Origin: Bacteroidota bacterium
GTDB taxonomy: Bacteria; Bacteroidota; Ignavibacteria; UBA10030; UBA6906
Direction: 5' to 3'
Assembly: GCA_040756745.1 (NCBI GenBank)
Contig: JBFLYO010000003.1
Location: 15,072 to 79,071, forward strand
Length of the DNA: 64,000 nucleotides
Shown: positions 31,195 through 60,925 of the stretch, in pieces
How positions within the stretch are numbered: the first letter of the stretch is position 1
Layout of the letters: the number at the start of each line of letters is the position of its first letter
Made by a program: the position numbers and the translations under genes
The notes under the pieces: generated by a model
The model's input: only the letters and a program-made list of their open reading frames with translations
What the model was told of the DNA's origin: nothing
Database searches by the model: none

Positions 31195-31335
31195 GTAGGC
31201 AGAAGTCAGTAGGCAGAAATCAGAAGTCAGTAGGCAGAAATCAGAAGTCAGAAAGAAGCCCTAAACCTTAACCTTAATCTCAATCTCGATCTCAATCTCA
31301 ATCTCACTCTCGTTCTCAATGCCCCTCAAACGCTC
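31195..31335. repeat. Intergenic repeat block, family 1: GTAGGCAGAA in three copies (21-bp tandem unit GTCAGTAGGCAGAAATCAGAA), then CCTTAACCTTAA, then ATCTCAATCTCGATCTCAATCTCAATCTC
   Basis: Read directly from the sequence between the cobB stop and the pyk start. The same motifs recur at 32776-32884, 42440-42560, 43042-43100, 43340-43400, 47729-47815 and 47905-48003. Confidence 0.8.
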
Positions 31336-31344
31336 CCACCTGCT

Positions 31345-32781
31345 ATGACTGCGCAACCGAGCAGAACCCGGATTGTATGCACGCTTGGGCCTGCGTCGAG
31401 CAGCGTCGAGACGCTGACGGCGCTCATCGGGGCCGGGATGGACGTTGTGCGGCTGAACTTCTCGCACGGCACGCACGAGGAACACCGGGAGGCGCTGAGA
31501 AACGTCCGGGAAGCCGTGCGCGTGACCGGTCATGAAGTGGCGGTCCTCCAGGACCTCCAGGGACCGAAGATCAGAATCGGCGAACTGGAGGTGCCGTCGA
31601 TCGAGCTCCGTCAGGGAGAGGAATTCACGATCACGACGGACCCGGTCGTTGGCGGACGGGGGCGGGTCTCCACGACATATGCGGGGCTTCCTCACGATGT
31701 CCATCCGGGTGCGGATATCTTGCTCGATGATGGCCGGCTTCGGCTCCGGGTTCTCCGCGTTTGGGGAAATGATGTGGAGTGCGAGGTGATTGTCGGGGGA
31801 ACGCTCAGCTCCCACAAAGGGATAAACCTCCCGGGAGTAGCGGTCAGCGCGCCATCGTTCACGGACAAAGACCTGGATGACCTTGCGTTCGGGCTTGCCA
31901 GCGAGGTCGACTATCTCGCGCTCTCGTTCGTCAGGACGGCGGAAGACATCCGTCTCCTCCGTGCAGCAGCAGCACAGGCACCCCAGCATGCACGTATGCC
32001 GGTGATTGCGAAGATCGAAAAACCGCAGGCGGTAGCCAACATCGATGAGATCATTGCAGAGGCGGACGGAATCATGATTGCCCGCGGCGATCTGGGTGTA
32101 GAGCTTCCGCCGGAGGACGTCCCGGTTCTCCAGAAGATGATCATCAGGCGGTGCAACAACGCCGGCAAACCGGTGATCATCGCGACACAGATGTTGGAAT
32201 CCATGATTGCGAGCCCGATGCCGACACGGGCAGAGGCCAGCGACGTCGCCAATGCCGTGGTCGACGGGGGCGATGCGGTCATGCTGAGCGGCGAGACGTC
32301 GGTGGGAAAGTACCCCATTGACGCCGTTCGGATCATGGAGCGGATCATCCGGAAGGTCGAATCGGAACGGCTGGTGCGCCCCAGAATCCCCGCTGAACCC
32401 CGGTCGAGCGTAACAGACCGGCACGACGCCCTCGGCCGTTCGGCGTGTGTGCTTGCGGAACAGATGAGAGCGGCGGCGATCGTCACGGTGACCAACTCAG
32501 GCCAAACGGCGAGAGTGCTGGCGCGCTATAGGCCTGACCCGCAGATCATCGCCATCACCGACAGTCCAAGAACACTCCGGATGCTGAACATTGTCTGGGG
32601 GGTACGCGGGTTGCTGGTGGAGGGACTCGATGAAGACTCCGATCATGCGCTCGCCAGGGTGCAGGAACGGCTCGTGGCATCGGGTCTGGTGAAGCGGGGA
32701 GAATACATCGTGTTGCTTGCGGGGCAGCCGTTCTTCGCGAGGGGGGGGACGAATTTTATCAAGGTGGAAAAGATAGGTTAA
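31345..32781 (+). CDS. pyk: pyruvate kinase
   Basis: Canonical N-terminus (TRIVCTLGPASSSVETL...GMDVVRLNFSHG) and the MLSGETSVGKYP motif. Confidence 0.95.
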   Translation: MTAQPSRTRIVCTLGPASSSVETLTALIGAGMDVVRLNFSHGTHEEHREALRNVREAVRVTGHEVAVLQDLQGPKIRIGELEVPSIELRQGEEFTITTDPVVGGRGRVSTTYAGLPHDVHPGADILLDDGRLRLRVLRVWGNDVECEVIVGGTLSSHKGINLPGVAVSAPSFTDKDLDDLAFGLASEVDYLALSFVRTAEDIRLLRAAAAQAPQHARMPVIAKIEKPQAVANIDEIIAEADGIMIARGDLGVELPPEDVPVLQKMIIRRCNNAGKPVIIATQMLESMIASPMPTRAEASDVANAVVDGGDAVMLSGETSVGKYPIDAVRIMERIIRKVESERLVRPRIPAEPRSSVTDRHDALGRSACVLAEQMRAAAIVTVTNSGQTARVLARYRPDPQIIAITDSPRTLRMLNIVWGVRGLLVEGLDEDSDHALARVQERLVASGLVKRGEYIVLLAGQPFFARGGTNFIKVEKIG

Positions 32782-32884
32782 GGATAAGGTTAAGGTCAAG
32801 GTCGGTTGTCGCTTGAGGAGTGTGGATTGACAATTGTGGATTCCTCCCCTTAACCTTAACCTGCTCCATCCCTTAACCTTCTCA
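32776..32884. repeat. Family 1 inverted-repeat element (GGTTAAGGATAAGGTTAAGGTCAAGGTC ... CCCCTTAACCTTAACC ... CCCTTAACCTT) spanning the convergent pyk and STAS gene ends. Probable bidirectional terminator
   Basis: The arms are reverse-complementary AAGGTTAAGG/CCTTAACCTT runs about 40 bp apart. They overlap the stop codons of both flanking genes. Confidence 0.7.
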
Positions 32885-38847: not shown

Positions 38848-38950
38848 AGGCGGAGTGCGGATTGCGGAACGGAAGTTCAGATGTGCGATTTGTGATTTCG
38901 GATGTGCCTTTACTTCATTCCGCAATCCGCGCTCCGCAATCCGCAATATA
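38848..38950. repeat. Family 2 palindromic element (GGCGGAGTGCGGATTGCGGAACGGAAG ... CATTCCGCAATCCGCGCTCCGCAATCCGCAATA) between the hybrid kinase start and the hup stop
   Basis: Imperfect inverted repeat about 100 bp long built from TGCGGATTGCGGA/TCCGCAATCCGCA units. Related copies are at 48455-48482 and 56692-56782. Confidence 0.7.
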
Positions 38951-42440: not shown

Positions 42441-42560
42441 CGCAGAGACGCAGAGTGATAGCCTGAACTCGAGCCCTGGATTCAGATTGAGGGGATGGGC
42501 CCTCACCCTCACCTCAAACTCAATCTTGATCTCAATCTGAATCTTCTCTGCGTCTCTGCG
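42441..42560. repeat. Nested palindromic family 1 element upstream of the DUF2147 gene
   Basis: Outer arms CCGCAGAGACGCAGAG / CTCTGCGTCTCTGCGCCTCTGCGG. Inner arms GATTCAGATTGAGGGG / CTCAAACTCAATCTTGATCTCAATCTGAATC. Confidence 0.7.
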
Positions 42561-42585: not shown

Positions 42586-43041
42586 GTGTCTATGCGCTTT
42601 CTGCTGGTCCTTTCGCTCCGGATCCTGGGTTTAACGTTTGCCCGGGATGATCCTCGTGCCGGCGATGCGATTCTTGGCCAATGGCTCACGGCCGAGTCTG
42701 AATCACGGATCGAGATCTACAAATGCGACAGCATCACCTACTGCGGCCGGATTGTCTGGCTGCGCGACCCACTGAAGGAGGGGAAGCCGGTGGTGGACGA
42801 TAAGAACCCGGAGGAATCATTACGGAACCGGCCGGTGATGGGGCTGGAGCTGCTGAGGGGCTTCACCTACGACGGGGACGGCGTTTGGGCGGGCGGGAAG
42901 ATTTACGATCCGAAGAGCGGGAATGATTACAGTGCGAAGATGCGGCTGACCAGTGATTCAACGCTGAACCTTCGCGGGTATGTACTCATTCCGCTCTTTG
43001 GCAGGACTGAGGGGTGGGTGCGGGTGAAGAAAGCAGATTGA
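42586..43041 (+). CDS. DUF2147 domain-containing secreted protein
   Basis: Signal peptide. The pattern GQWLTAE...IEIYKCDSITYCGRIVWL...GGKIYDPKSGNDYSAKMRL...LNLRGY matches DUF2147. Confidence 0.7.
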   Translation: MSMRFLLVLSLRILGLTFARDDPRAGDAILGQWLTAESESRIEIYKCDSITYCGRIVWLRDPLKEGKPVVDDKNPEESLRNRPVMGLELLRGFTYDGDGVWAGGKIYDPKSGNDYSAKMRLTSDSTLNLRGYVLIPLFGRTEGWVRVKKAD

Positions 43042-43110
43042 GATTTAGATTGAGATTAAGATTAAGGTTAAGGGGTGAGGCAGGTTAAGGTTAAGGGGAT
43101 CAAGCTCGTC
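43042..43110. repeat. Family 1 repeat block (GATTGAGATTTAGATTGAGATTAAGATTAAGGTTAAGGGG...GGTTAAGGTTAAGGGG) immediately after the DUF2147 stop
   Basis: Direct reading of the sequence. It is followed by a perfect hairpin GGATCCGCC-ATCGA-GGCGGATCC at 43147-43169. Confidence 0.75.
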
Positions 43111-43440
43111 GGTCATTGCGAGCGCTCTTTGCGAAGTCCGCCTCTTGGATCCGCCATCGAGGCGGATCCCGGGGGGCGGACAATCTCTGGTTAGGCAGAC
43201 AGAGGTTGCTTCGTCGCTGAGAAACGCTCCTCGGTGACCGGAAAGTGAGACGGAATGTCTGGAGCCTGAACAAGTGGCCTCGGGCAGCGAAGCTATTTTT
43301 CTCCTTGACATTCTTTTTTATAGACGCAATGACAAAGTGCTCTGTGGTTATCCTCTCAACCATACTCTCAATCTTGATCTCAATCTCAACCGTAACCCTC
43401 GTTCCCCTCAGTCCGCTCCTTGTTCTGCACTGTTCCCACC

Positions 43441-44853
43441 TCACTTCTTCCGAAACGTCACCGCCCGCTCTGATGCGGTCTCCAGTTCCATGAGGAGTTG
43501 AACCAATTTGTTGTAGTCCTCAGGGGGGATAACCTGTGATGTGAGATCCAGCGTAGCCGTTAGGCGCACGTCGTCTCCATCCCGCTTGCAAGCAATTGAG
43601 CCTCGCCCACCTGCAAAACCGCGCATGGTGGTGTCTCTCGGAGACTCAGTTACCACGTACCCCTCTGGATGATGAATACGCCATTCGATCGTCATCGTGT
43701 ACGGTTCGGGAAACACGACGTCGTTCGTACGTGACGGGGCGAATAGCTCATCCCGCAGCTGCCGCAGCAGGTGATTGGCAGGTCGAACACTGACGTATTT
43801 TTCGATGGTGGTCACCGCTGCCCTTGAAGTTCCCTTCGCGGCAATACTGACAAGGCCCTCCTCAAAAAACGGCGAGTAGCGAAGATCGCCCGCGTTTTCA
43901 AGACATTTGCCCAACACTGCTCGCTCGAAAAACGACTCCAGGTCCTTTCCCTTCAGCGCATAACCCCCGTTGCGCCACTCTTCAACCGGAGCACCGCGTC
44001 CGCTCGTTGCCATGCTGTCGAGGACGGCGAACCGGTCGCTGAACCTGAGGTCATGTGACTCTCGGATCCAAGCCTCGCCTGCCCTTGCGGCAGGCGTGGT
44101 CACCGATTGACACCCGTCGTTGCTGATCACCATGGCGGTGATTCCCTTCAGGAACCATGGGGTGCTATAACGGTTCGGGATCGCCCTGTCGAAGTCATAC
44201 AGCCGTTCGACTCCCCCAATTCTTACCTGCACGCCGATCCTGTCAAACCATCGGACCGTCGGCACGCTTGTTTCATACACCCCCTTCCGCCTGTCGCGGA
44301 TCCACCCTGCCTTCGCGTCCACCTCCCATTGGCGTAGGATCTTGTAGAAGATCGCTGAAAGATCAGACGCATCGCCGCTCCCGTCATCGAAGACCTTATC
44401 CAGATCATCGACTAGCGGGTAGAGACTGTTCACAGGGTCAAGCACGATCGCATGTCGCAAGGCAGTATAAAGACTGTCAACGCGCGCAAAGGTAACCGGC
44501 GATCCTAATGGAGCAAGGCCCAGCTGCCTGATACGGGAGTCTTTGACGTGACCCTTGTCGAGGTTCTCCTCCCAGTATGTCTTCGCGAGCGAGGACCAGT
44601 CCGTAGAACCACGAAACGCCAGATCGGACACAAATGCCGTCATCATGGAGAGTTCTTCAAATGGCGGTGCGTACGGTTCGGCGGGGATCGCATTGAGATT
44701 TCTCACGCTCCAGAACCGTGTGTCTCCCGATCCGAGCGTCGTTGCGATTTCAGAGATCTTCGGCTCGCCGATGCGGTCGGCAGGGAAGCTGAATACCCGG
44801 ATTTCATCACGCGCCTGACCGGTAATCGCGAGATTCGAAAAGAGCACGGGCAT
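43441..44853 (-). CDS. DUF3858-like / degenerate transglutaminase-like C-terminal module protein (B2). It is in-frame with and 2 codons downstream of the B1 stop
   Basis: 470 aa with no signal peptide. The C-terminal region resembles the DUF3858 end of Bacteroidota DUF3857-TGase-DUF3858 proteins. It may be the C-terminal part of a gene interrupted by a TAG codon. Confidence 0.5.
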   Translation of the reverse strand: MPVLFSNLAITGQARDEIRVFSFPADRIGEPKISEIATTLGSGDTRFWSVRNLNAIPAEPYAPPFEELSMMTAFVSDLAFRGSTDWSSLAKTYWEENLDKGHVKDSRIRQLGLAPLGSPVTFARVDSLYTALRHAIVLDPVNSLYPLVDDLDKVFDDGSGDASDLSAIFYKILRQWEVDAKAGWIRDRRKGVYETSVPTVRWFDRIGVQVRIGGVERLYDFDRAIPNRYSTPWFLKGITAMVISNDGCQSVTTPAARAGEAWIRESHDLRFSDRFAVLDSMATSGRGAPVEEWRNGGYALKGKDLESFFERAVLGKCLENAGDLRYSPFFEEGLVSIAAKGTSRAAVTTIEKYVSVRPANHLLRQLRDELFAPSRTNDVVFPEPYTMTIEWRIHHPEGYVVTESPRDTTMRGFAGGRGSIACKRDGDDVRLTATLDLTSQVIPPEDYNKLVQLLMELETASERAVTFRKK

Positions 44854-44859
44854 GCGGTC

Positions 44860-45411
44860 CTAATAGTAGAAGATGCCGCTATAGGTCCGCGAAAAAGGCT
44901 CCGTCAGAGAATACTCTAGCTGGACGATGTCTCCGGGCATCAGGTCAGGAACTTTGAACAGCGCTTTGCGGGCGATCGGCTCGCCATGCTTGTCCTGGTG
45001 GGAGACAATCACCGACACATCGCGATCCGGCATCACGATCACTGACCCGTCCGGTTTCTGCACACGAGCCCTTGCGGCAAACCCCGCCGGAATCTCATTG
45101 CCGAAATACTCCTTATACTCAAACTCAAATGATCCCAGGCGACGCACGCCTGCCTCGTTGAAGACCTTCGCGATCAGCACCGTGGTCCGCGTCATGGCGA
45201 TCCCGACAAGATCGACGCCGCGGTACGTTATTTCACTTCTGTGGACGTTGAGAGACTGTTCCTTGAGAACAATCACCCCATCGGCGCTTGGGAAGGCGTT
45301 TTGCGTCAACTGCGCGGCGAAAGTTGCGTTGGGGAGAGGTCGCAGGAACTCCTGAGCAGTAGCAACCTGCAGCATAAGACACCAGAGCAGAACTGCGATC
45401 GGTGAGTTCAT
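44860..45411 (-). CDS. DUF3857 domain secreted protein (B1)
   Basis: Signal peptide (…QVATAQEF). A DUF3857-like region ends in the aromatic motif SGIFYY, followed by a TAG stop. Confidence 0.6.
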   Translation of the reverse strand: MNSPIAVLLWCLMLQVATAQEFLRPLPNATFAAQLTQNAFPSADGVIVLKEQSLNVHRSEITYRGVDLVGIAMTRTTVLIAKVFNEAGVRRLGSFEFEYKEYFGNEIPAGFAARARVQKPDGSVIVMPDRDVSVIVSHQDKHGEPIARKALFKVPDLMPGDIVQLEYSLTEPFSRTYSGIFYY

Positions 45412-45414
45412 GAG

Positions 45415-46428
45415 CTATCCTTTCTTCATGAGACGTATGGTCTGTGCCGCCTTGACGGCTTCGTTCGCGTAACTCCGGAGGAATTCGGATCGTGATCGTT
45501 CATCAAACGGGCCAGGGGGAAGAGCAAACCGATCCTCCCATCGGAATTCCCCATCGTGGCTTGGCGAGCGAAAGCCGGGGATTACTACCGCCACTGCGAC
45601 GCGCGCATAGCCCGGATAATAGAACACATCATTATGCTCAAGGCCAGGGTCTTCCTGAGGGAGGATTTTGTCGAACAGCTTGTCGAACCGGACATACACA
45701 TTCCCGCCGGCATGCCAGAGCGCATTGCGGAATCGGCATGCCGCGTTAATGACGAACGTTGTGCTGTCGACAGCCCAACTGACATCTGCAATAGTGATTT
45801 GCGAAGCGATATTTTTCTCGATCCACTTTGTGAGTGTTGCTTTCATTGACGTGTTGTTCATCCATCGACGTATGGTCAGAAAAGCGACGGCATACTGTCC
45901 TTGGAGCCTGACGGTAAGCGCCCCCATTAAATCGTCTTCGATTACCTGTAGGGTGCCGGAGACCGAGGCAAGGTTTTCAGGCAATTCAGCGATCGTTGCG
46001 AGGCTGGAGGCGCCCGTGTGGAGTATTAGTGCACGAGCGTTGACCACATCTTCGTCCGGCACGCCGATGGCCTCAGGGGGGTTCGTCCCATCGAACCAGT
46101 ATTCACGCCCCGGCGTCTGCCAGTGAACGATCATGTGATTGAACTGGTTGAGGGCGACCGGCAGGCCGTCGAAGAAAGGATGACCGTTCCCGCGCCAGCA
46201 GAGGGCGAGATCGGGATGGAGACCCGCTATGCGCGCCATCACGACCATGAGCGTTGAATAGTCTTTGCAATCGCCGTACCGGTGTCGGAACACGAATGGC
46301 GCCGCATTCGGTATGAACTCGCCGCCGCTGAGGTATGCCTGTTCGTATCGGATGTTTGACTGGCAGTAGCGGGCAATTGCGAACATTTTCTGTTCGTCGG
46401 TCATCTGATCGCTCACAATCTCCTGCAC
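45415..46428 (-). CDS. transglutaminase-like cysteine protease domain protein (A2). It has no own signal peptide and is in-frame continuation of A1 after a TAA
   Basis: Transglutaminase-like core YGDCKDYSTLMVVMARIAGL with downstream His/Asp. The 51 in-frame codons upstream (46429-46581) read as protein but contain no start codon. Confidence 0.65.
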   Translation of the reverse strand: MQEIVSDQMTDEQKMFAIARYCQSNIRYEQAYLSGGEFIPNAAPFVFRHRYGDCKDYSTLMVVMARIAGLHPDLALCWRGNGHPFFDGLPVALNQFNHMIVHWQTPGREYWFDGTNPPEAIGVPDEDVVNARALILHTGASSLATIAELPENLASVSGTLQVIEDDLMGALTVRLQGQYAVAFLTIRRWMNNTSMKATLTKWIEKNIASQITIADVSWAVDSTTFVINAACRFRNALWHAGGNVYVRFDKLFDKILPQEDPGLEHNDVFYYPGYARVAVAVVIPGFRSPSHDGEFRWEDRFALPPGPFDERSRSEFLRSYANEAVKAAQTIRLMKKG

Positions 46429-46581
46429 TGCCGCCGCGATCTGATCGTCCGGTCGCAGCTTCGCGTCGATGGTGCTCAGGAACCATTCGCCGAACGCTCT
46501 CCAACTGTCAGGTCCCCGGCTGGGCGTGATCGCATAGAGACGCGGAGCGGTGTCGTCGCTGGTAAAACGGTGCCGGGACGC

Positions 46582-47250
46582 TTACCGCTGTACATTGTGC
46601 CAGTCAAACCGATAGAGTGTCGAATGTTCGCTCCTGAGGACAGACGGGACAGTCCCGAGCGTGTCGTTGACGAGCCGGGCGATCACTGTATCCCCGGGCG
46701 GAACTTCCATGAGGCATGATGCATGGAGTACCCCGTCCCCCGCGTCTGCAGGCGAGAATGATACGCCAAGTTGCGGTAGTGCGAGGCGATGTTCGGAAAC
46801 GAACTCGACGAGGTCGCCCGATCCCGGCACGCGCTCAAGTCTGACGCTTCTGGAGAGCCGCTGCGAAATGACAATTCGGTTGCTCAATGTGCTCGAGGCG
46901 AGGTCGCTCAGGTCATAGGACTCCAGCGAGCCGTCGGCGTGTACGACGCGCGCCTCGTAGCCGGTCAGTTGCACCATGGAGCCATCCTCCACCGACAGGG
47001 TGCTGAATGTGCCCGCCGATCCGACTCGTATGATCCTGTGCGTGCGCAGTGTCGCAGCTCCCGTCCGATCATAGCGATAGTGTTCCTCGTGGAGCCGGAT
47101 CTCATCCTCCTGATTGCCAATTCCCTGGACTGCCTGCGGGGGAGGATCTGTCAGGAAACGATACCCTCCACAGCCGGGTAAGGAAAGGAGAAGGATGAGG
47201 CCAAGGGTGAGGATGTGAAGAATGGTGCGGATGAGCGGAGAGGTCATCAT
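46582..47250 (-). CDS. DUF3857 domain lipoprotein (A1)
   Basis: The start was chosen at MMTSPLIRTILHILTLGLILLLSLPGCGG (lipobox LPGC). A DUF3857-like region ends in the aromatic motif …LYRFDWHNVQR, followed by a TAA stop. Confidence 0.6.
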   Translation of the reverse strand: MMTSPLIRTILHILTLGLILLLSLPGCGGYRFLTDPPPQAVQGIGNQEDEIRLHEEHYRYDRTGAATLRTHRIIRVGSAGTFSTLSVEDGSMVQLTGYEARVVHADGSLESYDLSDLASSTLSNRIVISQRLSRSVRLERVPGSGDLVEFVSEHRLALPQLGVSFSPADAGDGVLHASCLMEVPPGDTVIARLVNDTLGTVPSVLRSEHSTLYRFDWHNVQR

Positions 47251-47572
47251 GCCGTCGCTCCTGAGTACGGGGAAACTTGTTATGGAAAAAACGGACTGCT
47301 CCCGCAGTGGATACCACTGCCGAGCATGTGGAGGCCGGGACCACACGTTCTCGCGCCGGGGGAGTTACAGCAAATGGCGCGTCAGGTTGCTACGAATCAA
47401 ATGGGAGAGCAGAATGCTGCAGCAGAATTACAGCGTCCGGCTTGCCGGGGGGTCGGACGCCGCAAAGACAACTCGCCGCAGAAAAACCACAGTAGAAGAT
47501 ACACCGCTCAGCAATTACTGTCAAGACGGAGCGGGATTATTCTGTCGATGTCACCCATGTCGGGATTCTTCA

Positions 47573-47606
47573 TAAAGAAAAAGGGCATCGGTTGTTGCGA
47601 TGCCCA
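47573..47606 (-). terminator. Rho-independent terminator on the minus strand (downstream of tRNA-Pro)
   Basis: The plus strand reads AAAGAAAAAGGGCATCGGTTGTTGCGATGCCC. On the minus strand this is an 8-bp GC stem (GGGCATCG/CGATGCCC) followed by TTTTTCTTT. Confidence 0.65.
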
Positions 47607-47896: not shown

Positions 47897-47964
47897 AAAT
47901 ATAAAGTTGAGGATAAGGATAAGGTTAAGGGGACAAGTCGCGACGCCACATCATTCCTTCTTTT

Positions 47965-48003
47965 CCTTAACCTTAACCTTAACCTTAACCTTAACCTTAA
48001 CCT
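47965..48003. repeat. (CCTTAA)6 hexanucleotide microsatellite (family 1) overlapping the 3' end of the merR-like gene
   Basis: CCTTAACCTTAACCTTAACCTTAACCTTAACCTTAACCT is read directly. It is preceded by GAGGATAAGGATAAGGTTAAGGGG at 47909-47932. Confidence 0.9.
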
Positions 48004-48380: not shown

Positions 48381-48482
48381 CGCGCGCTAGAGCCCAATAT
48401 ACCACGTCAAGCTACGAAAAACATGTCTGACTTGCAACCGACGCCGGCCGACAGTTCCGCAATTCGCATTCCGCAATCCGCA

Positions 48483-49040
48483 TTATTTTCTCGTCCTGCT
48501 CTTCGACAGCTTGACATCGATCTCCTTCATGCGCTTCAGCTCCTGCTGTACCTGCTGCAGGTCGGCTTCAAGATCCTGCAGGCGCCGCATGTCGGTCATG
48601 ATGGTGCCGCTCTGCCTCTTGGCGAGAGTCGTCAGGCTGTCGACCGAAGCGGTCTTCCGGGCAAGACTCTCCTGCAGCGTCCTCACCCGGCGAAGGAGGG
48701 AGACGAACATCTGGAAATGCTCACGGTCCGCTTTCTTCATCGGGAGATTGAGACACGCCGTGAACCAGTAGAGGGCGAGACTGTCGTTTCGCGCCGGGTT
48801 GAACTCGCTCGCATAGAGCAGGGCAGCCTTCCGCGCGGCAACCGGGAAGGCCGTTGATTGCGGAAATTCTGTCGCCACCACGACATAATGCTCGGCCGCA
48901 CCCTTGAGCGCCATCTCCTGCTCAAGGCTGTCGGCGAGCCGCATGTGATAGTTGACCAGATTCGCCGTCCGGCTTCCTTCGGTCCCCCCGCAGCCGGCAA
49001 GAACGCTCACGAGCAGCACGCCTGCGATCCATCGGTTCAT
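48483..49040 (-). CDS. lipoprotein with coiled-coil C-terminus, function unknown
   Basis: Signal peptide with lipobox LAGC. The first gene... (see finding) it is the last gene of a minus-strand operon. Confidence 0.55.
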   Translation of the reverse strand: MNRWIAGVLLVSVLAGCGGTEGSRTANLVNYHMRLADSLEQEMALKGAAEHYVVVATEFPQSTAFPVAARKAALLYASEFNPARNDSLALYWFTACLNLPMKKADREHFQMFVSLLRRVRTLQESLARKTASVDSLTTLAKRQSGTIMTDMRRLQDLEADLQQVQQELKRMKEIDVKLSKSRTRK

Positions 49041-56691: not shown

Positions 56692-56782
56692 GTGAAGCAC
56701 ATTCAATTCGGATTGCGGATTGCGAAGTGCGGAATATTCCGCAATCCACACTCCGCAATCCGCAATGCTGAGATTGCTTCAC
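56692..56782. repeat. Family 2 palindromic element between the ECF sigma stop and the cyc2-like gene start
   Basis: Outer arms GTGAAGCA...TGCTTCAC. Inner imperfect palindrome CGGATTGCGGATTGCGAAGTGCGGAATATTCCGCAATCCACACTCCGCAATCCG. Confidence 0.75.
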
Positions 56783-58585: not shown

Positions 58586-60925
58586 ATGCTTGAAGAGAAA
58601 CCCGGCATCAATCCGGGCCGGTTCTTCCGAAAGGAATGGATCGCTCCCGGCGTTCTTGTGAAGGTCGGCATTGGTCTGTCACTGACCACAGTGCTTGTGC
58701 TTCTGTTTCCACGCGGCGAGTCTATTGAGCTTGAATATCGCGTGGGAGCAGTCTGGGCGCAAAAAGACCTGATCGCTCCCTTTTCCTTCCCCATATTCCG
58801 TGACGAGCGTGAATATGCGCGTGATGTCGAAGAGGCCAGGAAGCGGGTGTTCAACGTCTTTGAGCGGGACACAGCCGGGAGCGAGATGCAGGTCGCGCAA
58901 CTCGACAGCTTCTTCGCGCGGCTCGAGGAGACGCTCGCGGCGCGGGCGCACCAGCGCAGGAACATGCGCAAAGGGGGGGGATCCGCATCAGAAGATTCCT
59001 CAAGGTTCAGCCGGCTTGCCTCCGCCCTTGACATTCCCTTCTCCGACAAGGAGTGGGATGCCCTCTCCTCGCTTGTCTCCTCGGGCCGTCTCCGTCAGAT
59101 GGGGCGGGTGCTGAGCAATCTTGCCCGTAGGTATCTTCACGTCGGGATCATCGACAGGCCGAAGAATGCACTCGGACGGCCCGACATCGCAATCCGCAAG
59201 GGTACGGTCGAGGAAATTCTTCCCGCGGCGCGCCTGCTCGACAACAACGACCTTCACGCGCTCCTGGAGAAGGAGCTCTCGGAGAGGTTCCCCGGCGACC
59301 ATGAGGCTGTCGGGATGGCCTACAAGATCGGCGTGATGCACATCAAGCCAAACGTGAAATTCAGTGCGGCGGCAACGGACCAGGCCCTTGCCGCAGCCGC
59401 CGACGCCGTGCCCCGGACTCTCGGCTTCGTTCAGGAGAACGAGCGGATCGTCAGCAAGCATGAGCGCATTACACAGGAAACCAGGCTGAAGCTGGAATCG
59501 CTGCGCCGTGCCCGCGCCGAACGGGGACCGGAGTCGGACCGACCGACACAATTCCTCGGGACGATCCTCCATGTGTCGATCGTGTTGGTCCTGTACGGCC
59601 TCTATTTGTTCCTCTTCCGGAAGGGGATCTTTGGCAGCAATCGGAAACTGGCACTCATCGCCGTCATTTTCGTGATGGAAGGAGCGTTTGCGTACCTGAC
59701 CCGCGAAGCCGACGTGAACGCCCCGCTTGAATTCCTCATCCTCGTGCCGGTGGCGTCGATGCTCCTCACCATCATCTTCGACTCCCGCGTTGGCTTTTAC
59801 GGCACAGTGATCATCTCGTACCTCGTGGCGGGGATCCGCGGGAACGACTATTCGGTCGCCCTCGCGTCGCTTGTTGCAGGTGCGATGGCGGTCTACACGG
59901 TCCGGGACATGAAAAACCGGACGCAGATCTTCCGGTCACTCGGCTTCATCTTCCTCGGGTATGGGATATCCATCACGGCGCTGGGGCTGGAGCGGTTCGA
60001 GTCCACGCCTATCGTCGTGGAACAACTGGCGTACGGACTGCTGAATGCGGTGATCTCCCCCGTGATGACCTACGGACTGCTGATCTTCCTGGAGAAGAGC
60101 TTCCGCGTGACGACCGACCTCGCCCTCATGGAGCTGGCGCATTTCAACCATCCGCTGCTCCGCCAGCTCTCAGAGCAGGCGCCTGGCACGTATCATCACA
60201 GCATGACGATGGCGACGCTTGCAGAAGCCGCCGCGGCGGCCGTGGGTGCGAACGAGGTGCTCGCCCGCGTGGGGGCCTATTTCCATGATGTCGGCAAGAT
60301 CGTGAAGCCGACCTATTTCGTGGAGAACCAGAAGACCTCCCGCAGCAGGCATGACAAGCTGTCGCCGCGCATGAGCTCCCTCATCATCGGCGCGCACGTC
60401 AAGGACGGGATTGCGCTGGCGCAAGAGCACCACCTTCCCGAGGAAGTGATCGAGTTCATCCCGATGCACCACGGCACCACACGGATGGACTACTTCTACA
60501 ACAAAGCGCTCGAACTGGCGCGGAACGATCCGGATGAAACCAAGATCGATGAGATCAAGGAGCAGGACTACCGCTACCCGGGCCCCAAGCCGCAGACAAA
60601 GGAGACGGGTATCATGATGCTGGCCGACGCGGTGGAGGCAGCGGTGCGGACGATCGACGACCCCACGCCCCAGCGCCTCGAGCAAGCAATCGACGAGCTC
60701 ATCAAGCTCCGGTTTGAAGAAGGGGAACTGGACGAATGTCCCCTGACGCTGAAGGACCTGACGCGCATTAAATCGGCCTTCCTTGGCGTCCTCGTCGGGA
60801 TTTACCACTCGCGGGTCAAATATCCCGACACGGCGCGCAGAAAGACACGCAAGACCACCACGCCGCCCGCCGAGCCCGCGGCGGAACGGAACACGAACAT
60901 CATCAGGGAGATCGATCGGCAATGA
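58586..60925 (+). CDS. PgpH-like 7TM receptor with intracellular HD phosphohydrolase domain (7TMR-HDED + HD/HDIG)
   Basis: Extracytoplasmic N-domain, 7 TM helices, then HD domain motifs (HSMTMATLAEAAA...GAYFHDVGK...HH). Confidence 0.8.
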   Translation: MLEEKPGINPGRFFRKEWIAPGVLVKVGIGLSLTTVLVLLFPRGESIELEYRVGAVWAQKDLIAPFSFPIFRDEREYARDVEEARKRVFNVFERDTAGSEMQVAQLDSFFARLEETLAARAHQRRNMRKGGGSASEDSSRFSRLASALDIPFSDKEWDALSSLVSSGRLRQMGRVLSNLARRYLHVGIIDRPKNALGRPDIAIRKGTVEEILPAARLLDNNDLHALLEKELSERFPGDHEAVGMAYKIGVMHIKPNVKFSAAATDQALAAAADAVPRTLGFVQENERIVSKHERITQETRLKLESLRRARAERGPESDRPTQFLGTILHVSIVLVLYGLYLFLFRKGIFGSNRKLALIAVIFVMEGAFAYLTREADVNAPLEFLILVPVASMLLTIIFDSRVGFYGTVIISYLVAGIRGNDYSVALASLVAGAMAVYTVRDMKNRTQIFRSLGFIFLGYGISITALGLERFESTPIVVEQLAYGLLNAVISPVMTYGLLIFLEKSFRVTTDLALMELAHFNHPLLRQLSEQAPGTYHHSMTMATLAEAAAAAVGANEVLARVGAYFHDVGKIVKPTYFVENQKTSRSRHDKLSPRMSSLIIGAHVKDGIALAQEHHLPEEVIEFIPMHHGTTRMDYFYNKALELARNDPDETKIDEIKEQDYRYPGPKPQTKETGIMMLADAVEAAVRTIDDPTPQRLEQAIDELIKLRFEEGELDECPLTLKDLTRIKSAFLGVLVGIYHSRVKYPDTARRKTRKTTTPPAEPAAERNTNIIREIDRQ

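Follow-up and report, generated by a model that had tools for sequence, protein, structure and literature searches.

Single in-frame stop codons interrupt both genes of a conserved DUF3857/transglutaminase-like pair in a Bacteroidota genome

The closest described relative of the proteins discussed here is the PDB entry 3KD4, the 'putative protease' BDI_1141 of Parabacteroides distasonis, which we take to be the structure behind the Pfam families DUF3857 (PF12969) and DUF3858 (PF12970). A full-text literature search found these two domains named in only two papers, each time in passing, and no functional study of them. Proteins carrying DUF3857 and DUF3858 occur in the outer-membrane-vesicle proteome of Tannerella forsythia (PMC10682907). 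Here we describe two adjacent genes of this kind, named A and B, in a stretch of 64,000 nucleotides from a Bacteroidota bacterium (GenBank assembly GCA_040756745.1, contig JBFLYO010000003.1, positions 15,072 to 79,071). We refer to this whole stretch as the window and number all positions from its first letter. Each of the two genes is cut by one in-frame stop codon. We assign a probability of about 0.65 to the reading that both A and B underwent a very recent pseudogenisation by nonsense mutation, and we weigh this reading below against sequence error, recoding or reinitiation, and a natural split into four genes.

Two genes in one reading frame

On the minus strand, one reading frame runs through positions 43441-47250 and holds four open reading frames (ORFs), A1, A2, B1 and B2. 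The codons that break it are TAA (46582-46584), TAG (45415-45417) and TAG (44860-44862), and the frame closes with TGA at 43441-43443; these coordinates, the strand, the frame and the stop codons had been given in an earlier note, made from the sequence alone, and all were exact on recheck. The same note took the ORFs as four units divided by three equivalent stops, which we revise here: the TAG at 45415-45417 coincides with the C-termini of the A homologs (...RKG) and is therefore the normal terminator of A. The locus consists of two genes, not four, and the only premature stops are the TAA at codon 223 of A and the TAG at codon 184 of B.

The reconstruction of both genes draws on homologs, Pfam matches and structure models. 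Gene A (45415..47250, minus strand, as are all the pieces) has 611 codons plus TAG. It is represented by a 5' fragment, A1, of 222 aa (46585..47250; MEW6509719.1, a hypothetical protein in GenBank), followed by the premature TAA, then by 51 codons (46429..46581) that are unannotated in the public record, and finally by a 3' fragment, A2, of 337 aa counted from a GTG (45418..46428; MEW6509718.1). Gene B (43441..45411) has 656 codons plus TGA and comprises B1, a 5' fragment of 183 aa (44863..45411; MEW6509717.1), the premature TAG, and B2, a 3' fragment of 470 aa that starts at Met187 (43444..44853; MEW6509716.1). In the public record the four pieces stand as separate proteins, each of them a singleton cluster. 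Because both premature stops are substitutions, a common frame is kept within each gene, and because a spacer of 3 nt separates A from B, the two genes also lie in one frame, so that a single frame for all four ORFs is unremarkable. The 3-nt spacer is found as well in the closest relative (locus L013), where a TGA at the end position of A is followed by the spacer and then by the start of B, and in locus L015 A and B likewise share one frame; in more distant loci the frames of A and B mostly differ.

The protein encoded by reconstructed A begins with a lipoprotein signal peptide ending LSLPG-C27, and an AGGAG motif lies 8 nt 5' of the ATG of A1. Behind the signal peptide come a beta-sandwich of the DUF3857 type, then a transglutaminase-like core and a putative C-terminal module. 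The core matches PF01841 (Transglut_core) with 40.9 bits, above the cut-off of 23, and the YGDCKDY motif that had been noticed earlier is present, with Cys328 encoded at 46267-46269; together with His372 (46135-46137) and Asp387 (46090-46092) it forms a set of catalytic residues invariant in 16 sequences. These features suggest that A could be a cell-envelope cysteine hydrolase or transglutaminase. A1 comprises the lipoprotein signal together with the greater part of the N-terminal beta-sandwich, and A2 holds the core and the C-terminal module, with neither a signal peptide nor a Shine-Dalgarno-like motif before its GTG. The DUF3857 label that A1 had received in the earlier note stands through homologs of A in which PF12969 is found (P0009, P0012, P0013 and P0016) and through the fold match to 3KD4, and not through its own sequence, as Pfam DUF3857 has no match on A1 or on fused A.

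A search with joined A1 and A2 recovered 25 strong homologs, all single ORFs, at 30-63% identity and covering 92-100% of the fused sequence (603-615 aa long, counted without those shortened by contig ends or start calls). At the site of the TAA, the six closest homologs have Asn, and the codon in L013 is AAT. The stop interrupts a variable linker; in the model it comes directly behind strand 211-221, a single further strand separates it from the core helices, and the entire catalytic core is downstream of it. The 51 codons that follow it read as protein and contain no ATG, GTG or TTG, as had been reported, and they align to the homologs, with the invariant residues P236, W250, G254 and W256 all persisting.

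Gene B encodes a signal peptide (...VATA-QE), a DUF3857 domain, a transglutaminase-like core that lacks the catalytic Cys, and a putative DUF3858 module. In fused B, residues 74-242 match PF12969 with 31.4 bits, above the cut-off of 24.6, and this match runs through the stop at 184, so the B stop cuts the domain. B1 contains the signal peptide plus the N-terminal two thirds of DUF3857, and B2 contains the last third, the Cys-less core and a DUF3858 match (PF12970) of 24.6-25.2 bits, below the cut-off of 27, and has no signal peptide. The earlier description of B2 as a DUF3858-like module is thus borne out by the sub-threshold match and incomplete, because B2 also carries part of DUF3857 and the Cys-less core. 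Where A has GDCKD, B has GDASD, with Ala348 (44368-44370) invariant in 18 sequences. As the catalytic Cys is Ala in all 18 B sequences, B cannot use the same chemistry and is a conserved non-catalytic relative, probably acting as a non-catalytic partner of A.

With joined B1 and B2 as the query, ~30 homologs were found, nearly all of 649-664 aa, which are single ORFs with 34-66% identity and 88-100% cover. The TAG sits inside a conserved block, SGIFYY-Q-DRMPVLFSNL, in which the seven closest homologs have Gln at the position of the stop, and in the model it is preceded by strand 179-182 and followed by strand 192-197. L013 and L015, the two homologs whose DNA was read, have CAG here, and the TAG of B is therefore a single C-to-T change (G-to-A at plus-strand position 44862). 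L015, a metagenome contig, was the only hit of a degenerate DNA pattern laid across the B site, and an exact-sequence look-up of A2 and B2 in the contig index returned no contig. Matches in a set of species-representative genomes did not include the source genome. For the four pieces, no relative above 66% identity was found, the only 100% matches being the window's own pieces.

Structure models agree with this domain layout, and their matches seem to extend over the full chain. The AlphaFold model of A reaches a predicted local distance difference test (pLDDT) score of 86 and among PDB entries matches 3KD4 best (E = 8.5e-23, 523 columns); the C-terminal module of A has no sequence match, only this fold match. 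The model of B (pLDDT 83) also has 3KD4 as its best match, with E = 8.9e-25 and a template-modelling (TM) score of 0.69 on the target; the alignment spans 632 columns, gaps included, and may reach into the C-terminal module. At the sequence level, a PDB profile search gave nothing for A or B and no NCBIfam model covers either. A PADLOC assignment was set aside, as its sole match (E = 0.009) is meaningless. Since each gene is cut by a stop, assignment to a family of single exported polypeptides fits the ancestral genes and not the present ORFs.

A and B form an ancient conserved gene pair. A lies directly upstream of B in 12 of the 12 genome loci recovered, from Ignavibacteriota, Calditrichia, KSB1 and Bacteroidota, and also in L013, L014 and L015, giving 15 of 15 related loci, all with A and B intact except L002 and L014. 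The earlier note had considered two tandem paralogs, each split by a nonsense mutation. The nonsense codons do stand at sense sites of intact homologs; recent duplication finds no support, since BLASTP of A against B gives E = 1.7 and the two are alike at the fold level only; they are an ancient catalytic/non-catalytic pair, not recent tandem paralogs. In two loci (L004, 4018-7974, and L007, 1954-7974), a single A is followed by a tandem series of two or three B genes (A-B-B, A-B-B-B). No conserved neighbours beyond A-B were found across the loci.

More than 50 homologs of A and B are uninterrupted, at 603-664 aa, and aligning the joined fragments to these intact proteins, as had been proposed, places both stops at sense-codon positions. 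These comparisons bear directly on the possibility that the locus holds four genuine, naturally split genes, as its four entries in GenBank would have it. We consider this extremely improbable: the DUF3857 domain of B would be divided in its middle, the 51 conserved codons of A would be left without a start, and the homologs are single ORFs, none of which is split at the site of either stop. The earlier note had named orthologs that share the split, with independent starts and signal peptides on the downstream ORFs, as the observation that would refute its own reading, and in no relative among the related loci examined was the same split seen with its own start and signal peptide. Two apparent recurrences of a break were traced to other causes. 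In L002, the break near A residues 190-226 is an NN scaffold gap, and in L014 (4001-7700; ENA contig_175921, 97 kb) the A and B homologs are fragmented by frameshifts at other positions. The neighbouring gene calls in L014 are also short, suggesting indel errors rather than biology.

Constraint, age and reality of the stops

We compared A and B with intact homologs for signs of decay. At columns that are invariant in all other sequences, A deviates three times and B once, and intact close or moderately divergent homologs deviate 0-4 times. The mean identity of A to outgroups is 0.401, compared with 0.393-0.438 in intact close relatives, and that of B is 0.426, compared with 0.408-0.428. Neither extra substitutions nor rate acceleration, as expected of relaxed constraint, was detected in A or B relative to the intact homologs. 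Against L013, the proportions of nonsynonymous (pN) and synonymous (pS) differences are 0.19-0.28 and 0.70-0.74, respectively, on both sides of each stop, a ratio that shows long-term constraint only, because synonymous divergence (dS) is saturated at 63-66% protein identity. Nothing is wrong with the two genes except the two stops, and the stops are therefore either very recent or not real.

The second of these options, that A and B are intact in the organism and that the stops arose from a base-call, consensus or polishing error or from a minority allele fixed by the assembler, is in our judgment unlikely, though it deserves serious weight. The source is a metagenome-assembled genome, with the sequence on a single contig of 159,245 bp, both genes look perfectly conserved but for one codon each, and other assemblies of the pair do show artefacts, namely the NN gap in L002 and the multiple frameshifts in L014. 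Both lesions here, however, are substitutions and not indels, and random error would seldom place stops in a pair of neighbouring genes without placing any elsewhere. The window has a compact map of ~60 ORFs with no other split among same-frame neighbours, which makes a generally error-prone assembly unlikely; in the five other pairs of neighbouring ORFs that share a frame, the domains that Pfam recognises are complete and differ between the two members, in a survey that did not systematically test frameshifts.

Under the reading that we prefer, very recent loss of both genes, one base substitution per gene would have created the TAA at codon 223 of A and, from CAG, the TAG at codon 184 of B. 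Translation would then yield truncated, exported N-terminal fragments only. Restart at Met187 of B or at the GTG of A would give products that lack the signal peptide and part of the N-terminal domain and that, without a signal peptide, would stay in the cytoplasm. With the fragments truncated and the restarted products unexported, both genes would be functionally lost, and the lack of any further decay would date the loss to the very recent past. That two neighbouring partner genes are both hit suggests a linked loss, in which the disappearance of one partner might have made the other dispensable, or in which loss of the system as a whole might have been selected. We infer that paired hits, with none seen elsewhere, fit such a linked loss better than random error, and the same inferential standing applies to the stops as true alleles, to the functions of the two proteins and to their partnership.

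Several points weigh against recent loss. The complete lack of other damage is also what an error would produce, chance alone would rarely put independent nonsense substitutions into both of two adjacent genes, 1.7 kb from each other, and the ~60-gene window shows no other apparent disruption. At the A site, the AAT of the closest homologs is two changes away from TAA. Finally, architecture, the catalytic-residue pattern and adjacency are the grounds for the proposed function and partnership of A and B.

It could also be that the split is tolerated or used, with a little full-length A and B made through near-cognate readthrough, such as Gln insertion at UAG or UAA, or through a suppressor tRNA encoded elsewhere, or with the downstream halves produced by termination-reinitiation for a separate role. 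Such use of the split seems quite improbable to us. The stop of B stands exactly at the Gln position of the relatives, an ATG lies 6 nt after it with AGGA before the ATG, making reinitiation mechanically possible for B2, and both downstream halves are fully conserved. Yet a stop at either site occurs in no homolog or related locus, so that nothing points to a programmed event. The ATG after the B stop encodes Met187, an internal residue kept in the seven closest homologs and not a new start, and apart from this conserved Met the reinitiation option raised earlier gained no support. In A, 153 nt separate the stop from the next start codon, which has no Shine-Dalgarno-like motif, so reinitiation is unlikely for A2, and both A2 and B2 lack signal peptides in a family that is exported. 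UAAG is an efficient termination context in E. coli, and both premature stops have G as the next base. TAG and TAA also end other genes at conserved ends, the TAG of A itself included; among 38 predicted genes in the window, the terminators are TGA in 23, TAA in 9 and TAG in 6. The window contains no suppressor tRNA, its only tRNA being tRNA-Pro(GGG), and Rfam likewise matches only this tRNA. We rejected genetic-code reassignment or a suppressor tRNA as a candidate, as TAG and TAA are ordinary terminators here and tRNA-Pro is the only tRNA of the window.

A more far-reaching idea, improbable in our estimate, is that A and B constitute an undescribed, obligate two-protein envelope system found across FCB-group phyla, that the double knock-out is adaptive (for example, as an escape from phages or predators), or that leaky stops throttle expression; past the adjacency and the catalytic pattern, this is speculation. 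The finding itself is ordinary and is chiefly an annotation correction, in which four listed proteins (MEW6509716 to MEW6509719) are replaced by two interrupted genes and the 51 conserved codons gain an annotation. If the stops are real, the locus would capture an envelope gene pair at the very onset of loss. The conserved pairing of a transglutaminase-like lipoprotein with a Cys-less relative, present in several FCB phyla, offers an entry point to work on DUF3857 and DUF3858; it has no bearing on any long-standing open question.

Surroundings of the pair

Upstream of A, a sigma-70-like promoter match (TTGACA, a 17 nt spacer and TATCTT) is located at 47496..47524 on the minus strand, a match to consensus only, and it comes after a terminator-like hairpin at 47583-47605. 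This consensus evidence suggests that A and B may form their own transcription unit. The third-position GC content of A and B is 0.65-0.68, compared with 0.72-0.82 for most neighbouring genes; weak expression or a separate origin of the pair might explain the difference.

Arrays built from 6-nt units (AGATTG, AGATTA, AGGTTA and the complementary forms) occupy intergenic positions at gene boundaries, often as inverted pairs, and have no Rfam match. They are located at 31259-31320, at 32775-32880, at 42519-42544, at 43029-43073 with 43355-43404, and at 47902-47930 with 47965-48003. One inverted pair lies just downstream of the end of B and has 45-nt arms 286 nt apart; another, between tRNA-Pro and a MerR-family gene, has 29-nt arms that are 86% complementary and 34 nt apart. 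The 286-nt segment inside the arrays 3' of B (window 43100-43300) contains GC-rich palindromic stretches, e.g. GGATCCGCCATCGAGGCGGATCC, and no convincing ORF; it may be a small element, mobile or structured. Three intergenic regions contain heptamer arrays, (TCCGCAA)n, which form inverted pairs in two of the three (38855-38946, 48456-48483 and 56706-56765; also 59186-59199). A pattern of two such units has 14 matches, compared with 0.9 expected from shuffles, and the arrays may represent recurring hairpins or terminators, or clusters of binding sites.

Comparison with known systems

In their models, A and B show the same domain order as 3KD4, namely a beta-sandwich, then a core of the transglutaminase/papain-like kind and a putative C-terminal module. 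They differ from it in that sequence identity is only 12%, in that A has no Pfam DUF3857 match and the DUF3858 of B stays below the gathering score, and in being a conserved pair, one member catalytic and the other Cys-less, with both genes interrupted. Within the transglutaminase-like/papain-like superfamily (PF01841), A shares the Cys of GDCKD, His372 and Asp387, whereas B retains the frame of the motif but reads GDASD, with Ala for Cys. Compared with bacterial pseudogenes that arise from a single nonsense change, the locus is alike in having one in-frame stop per gene at a sense codon of the relatives and a downstream part without an export signal. It is unlike them in lacking further decay, in that two adjacent, linked genes are struck, and in that the resulting pieces are annotated as four normal proteins.

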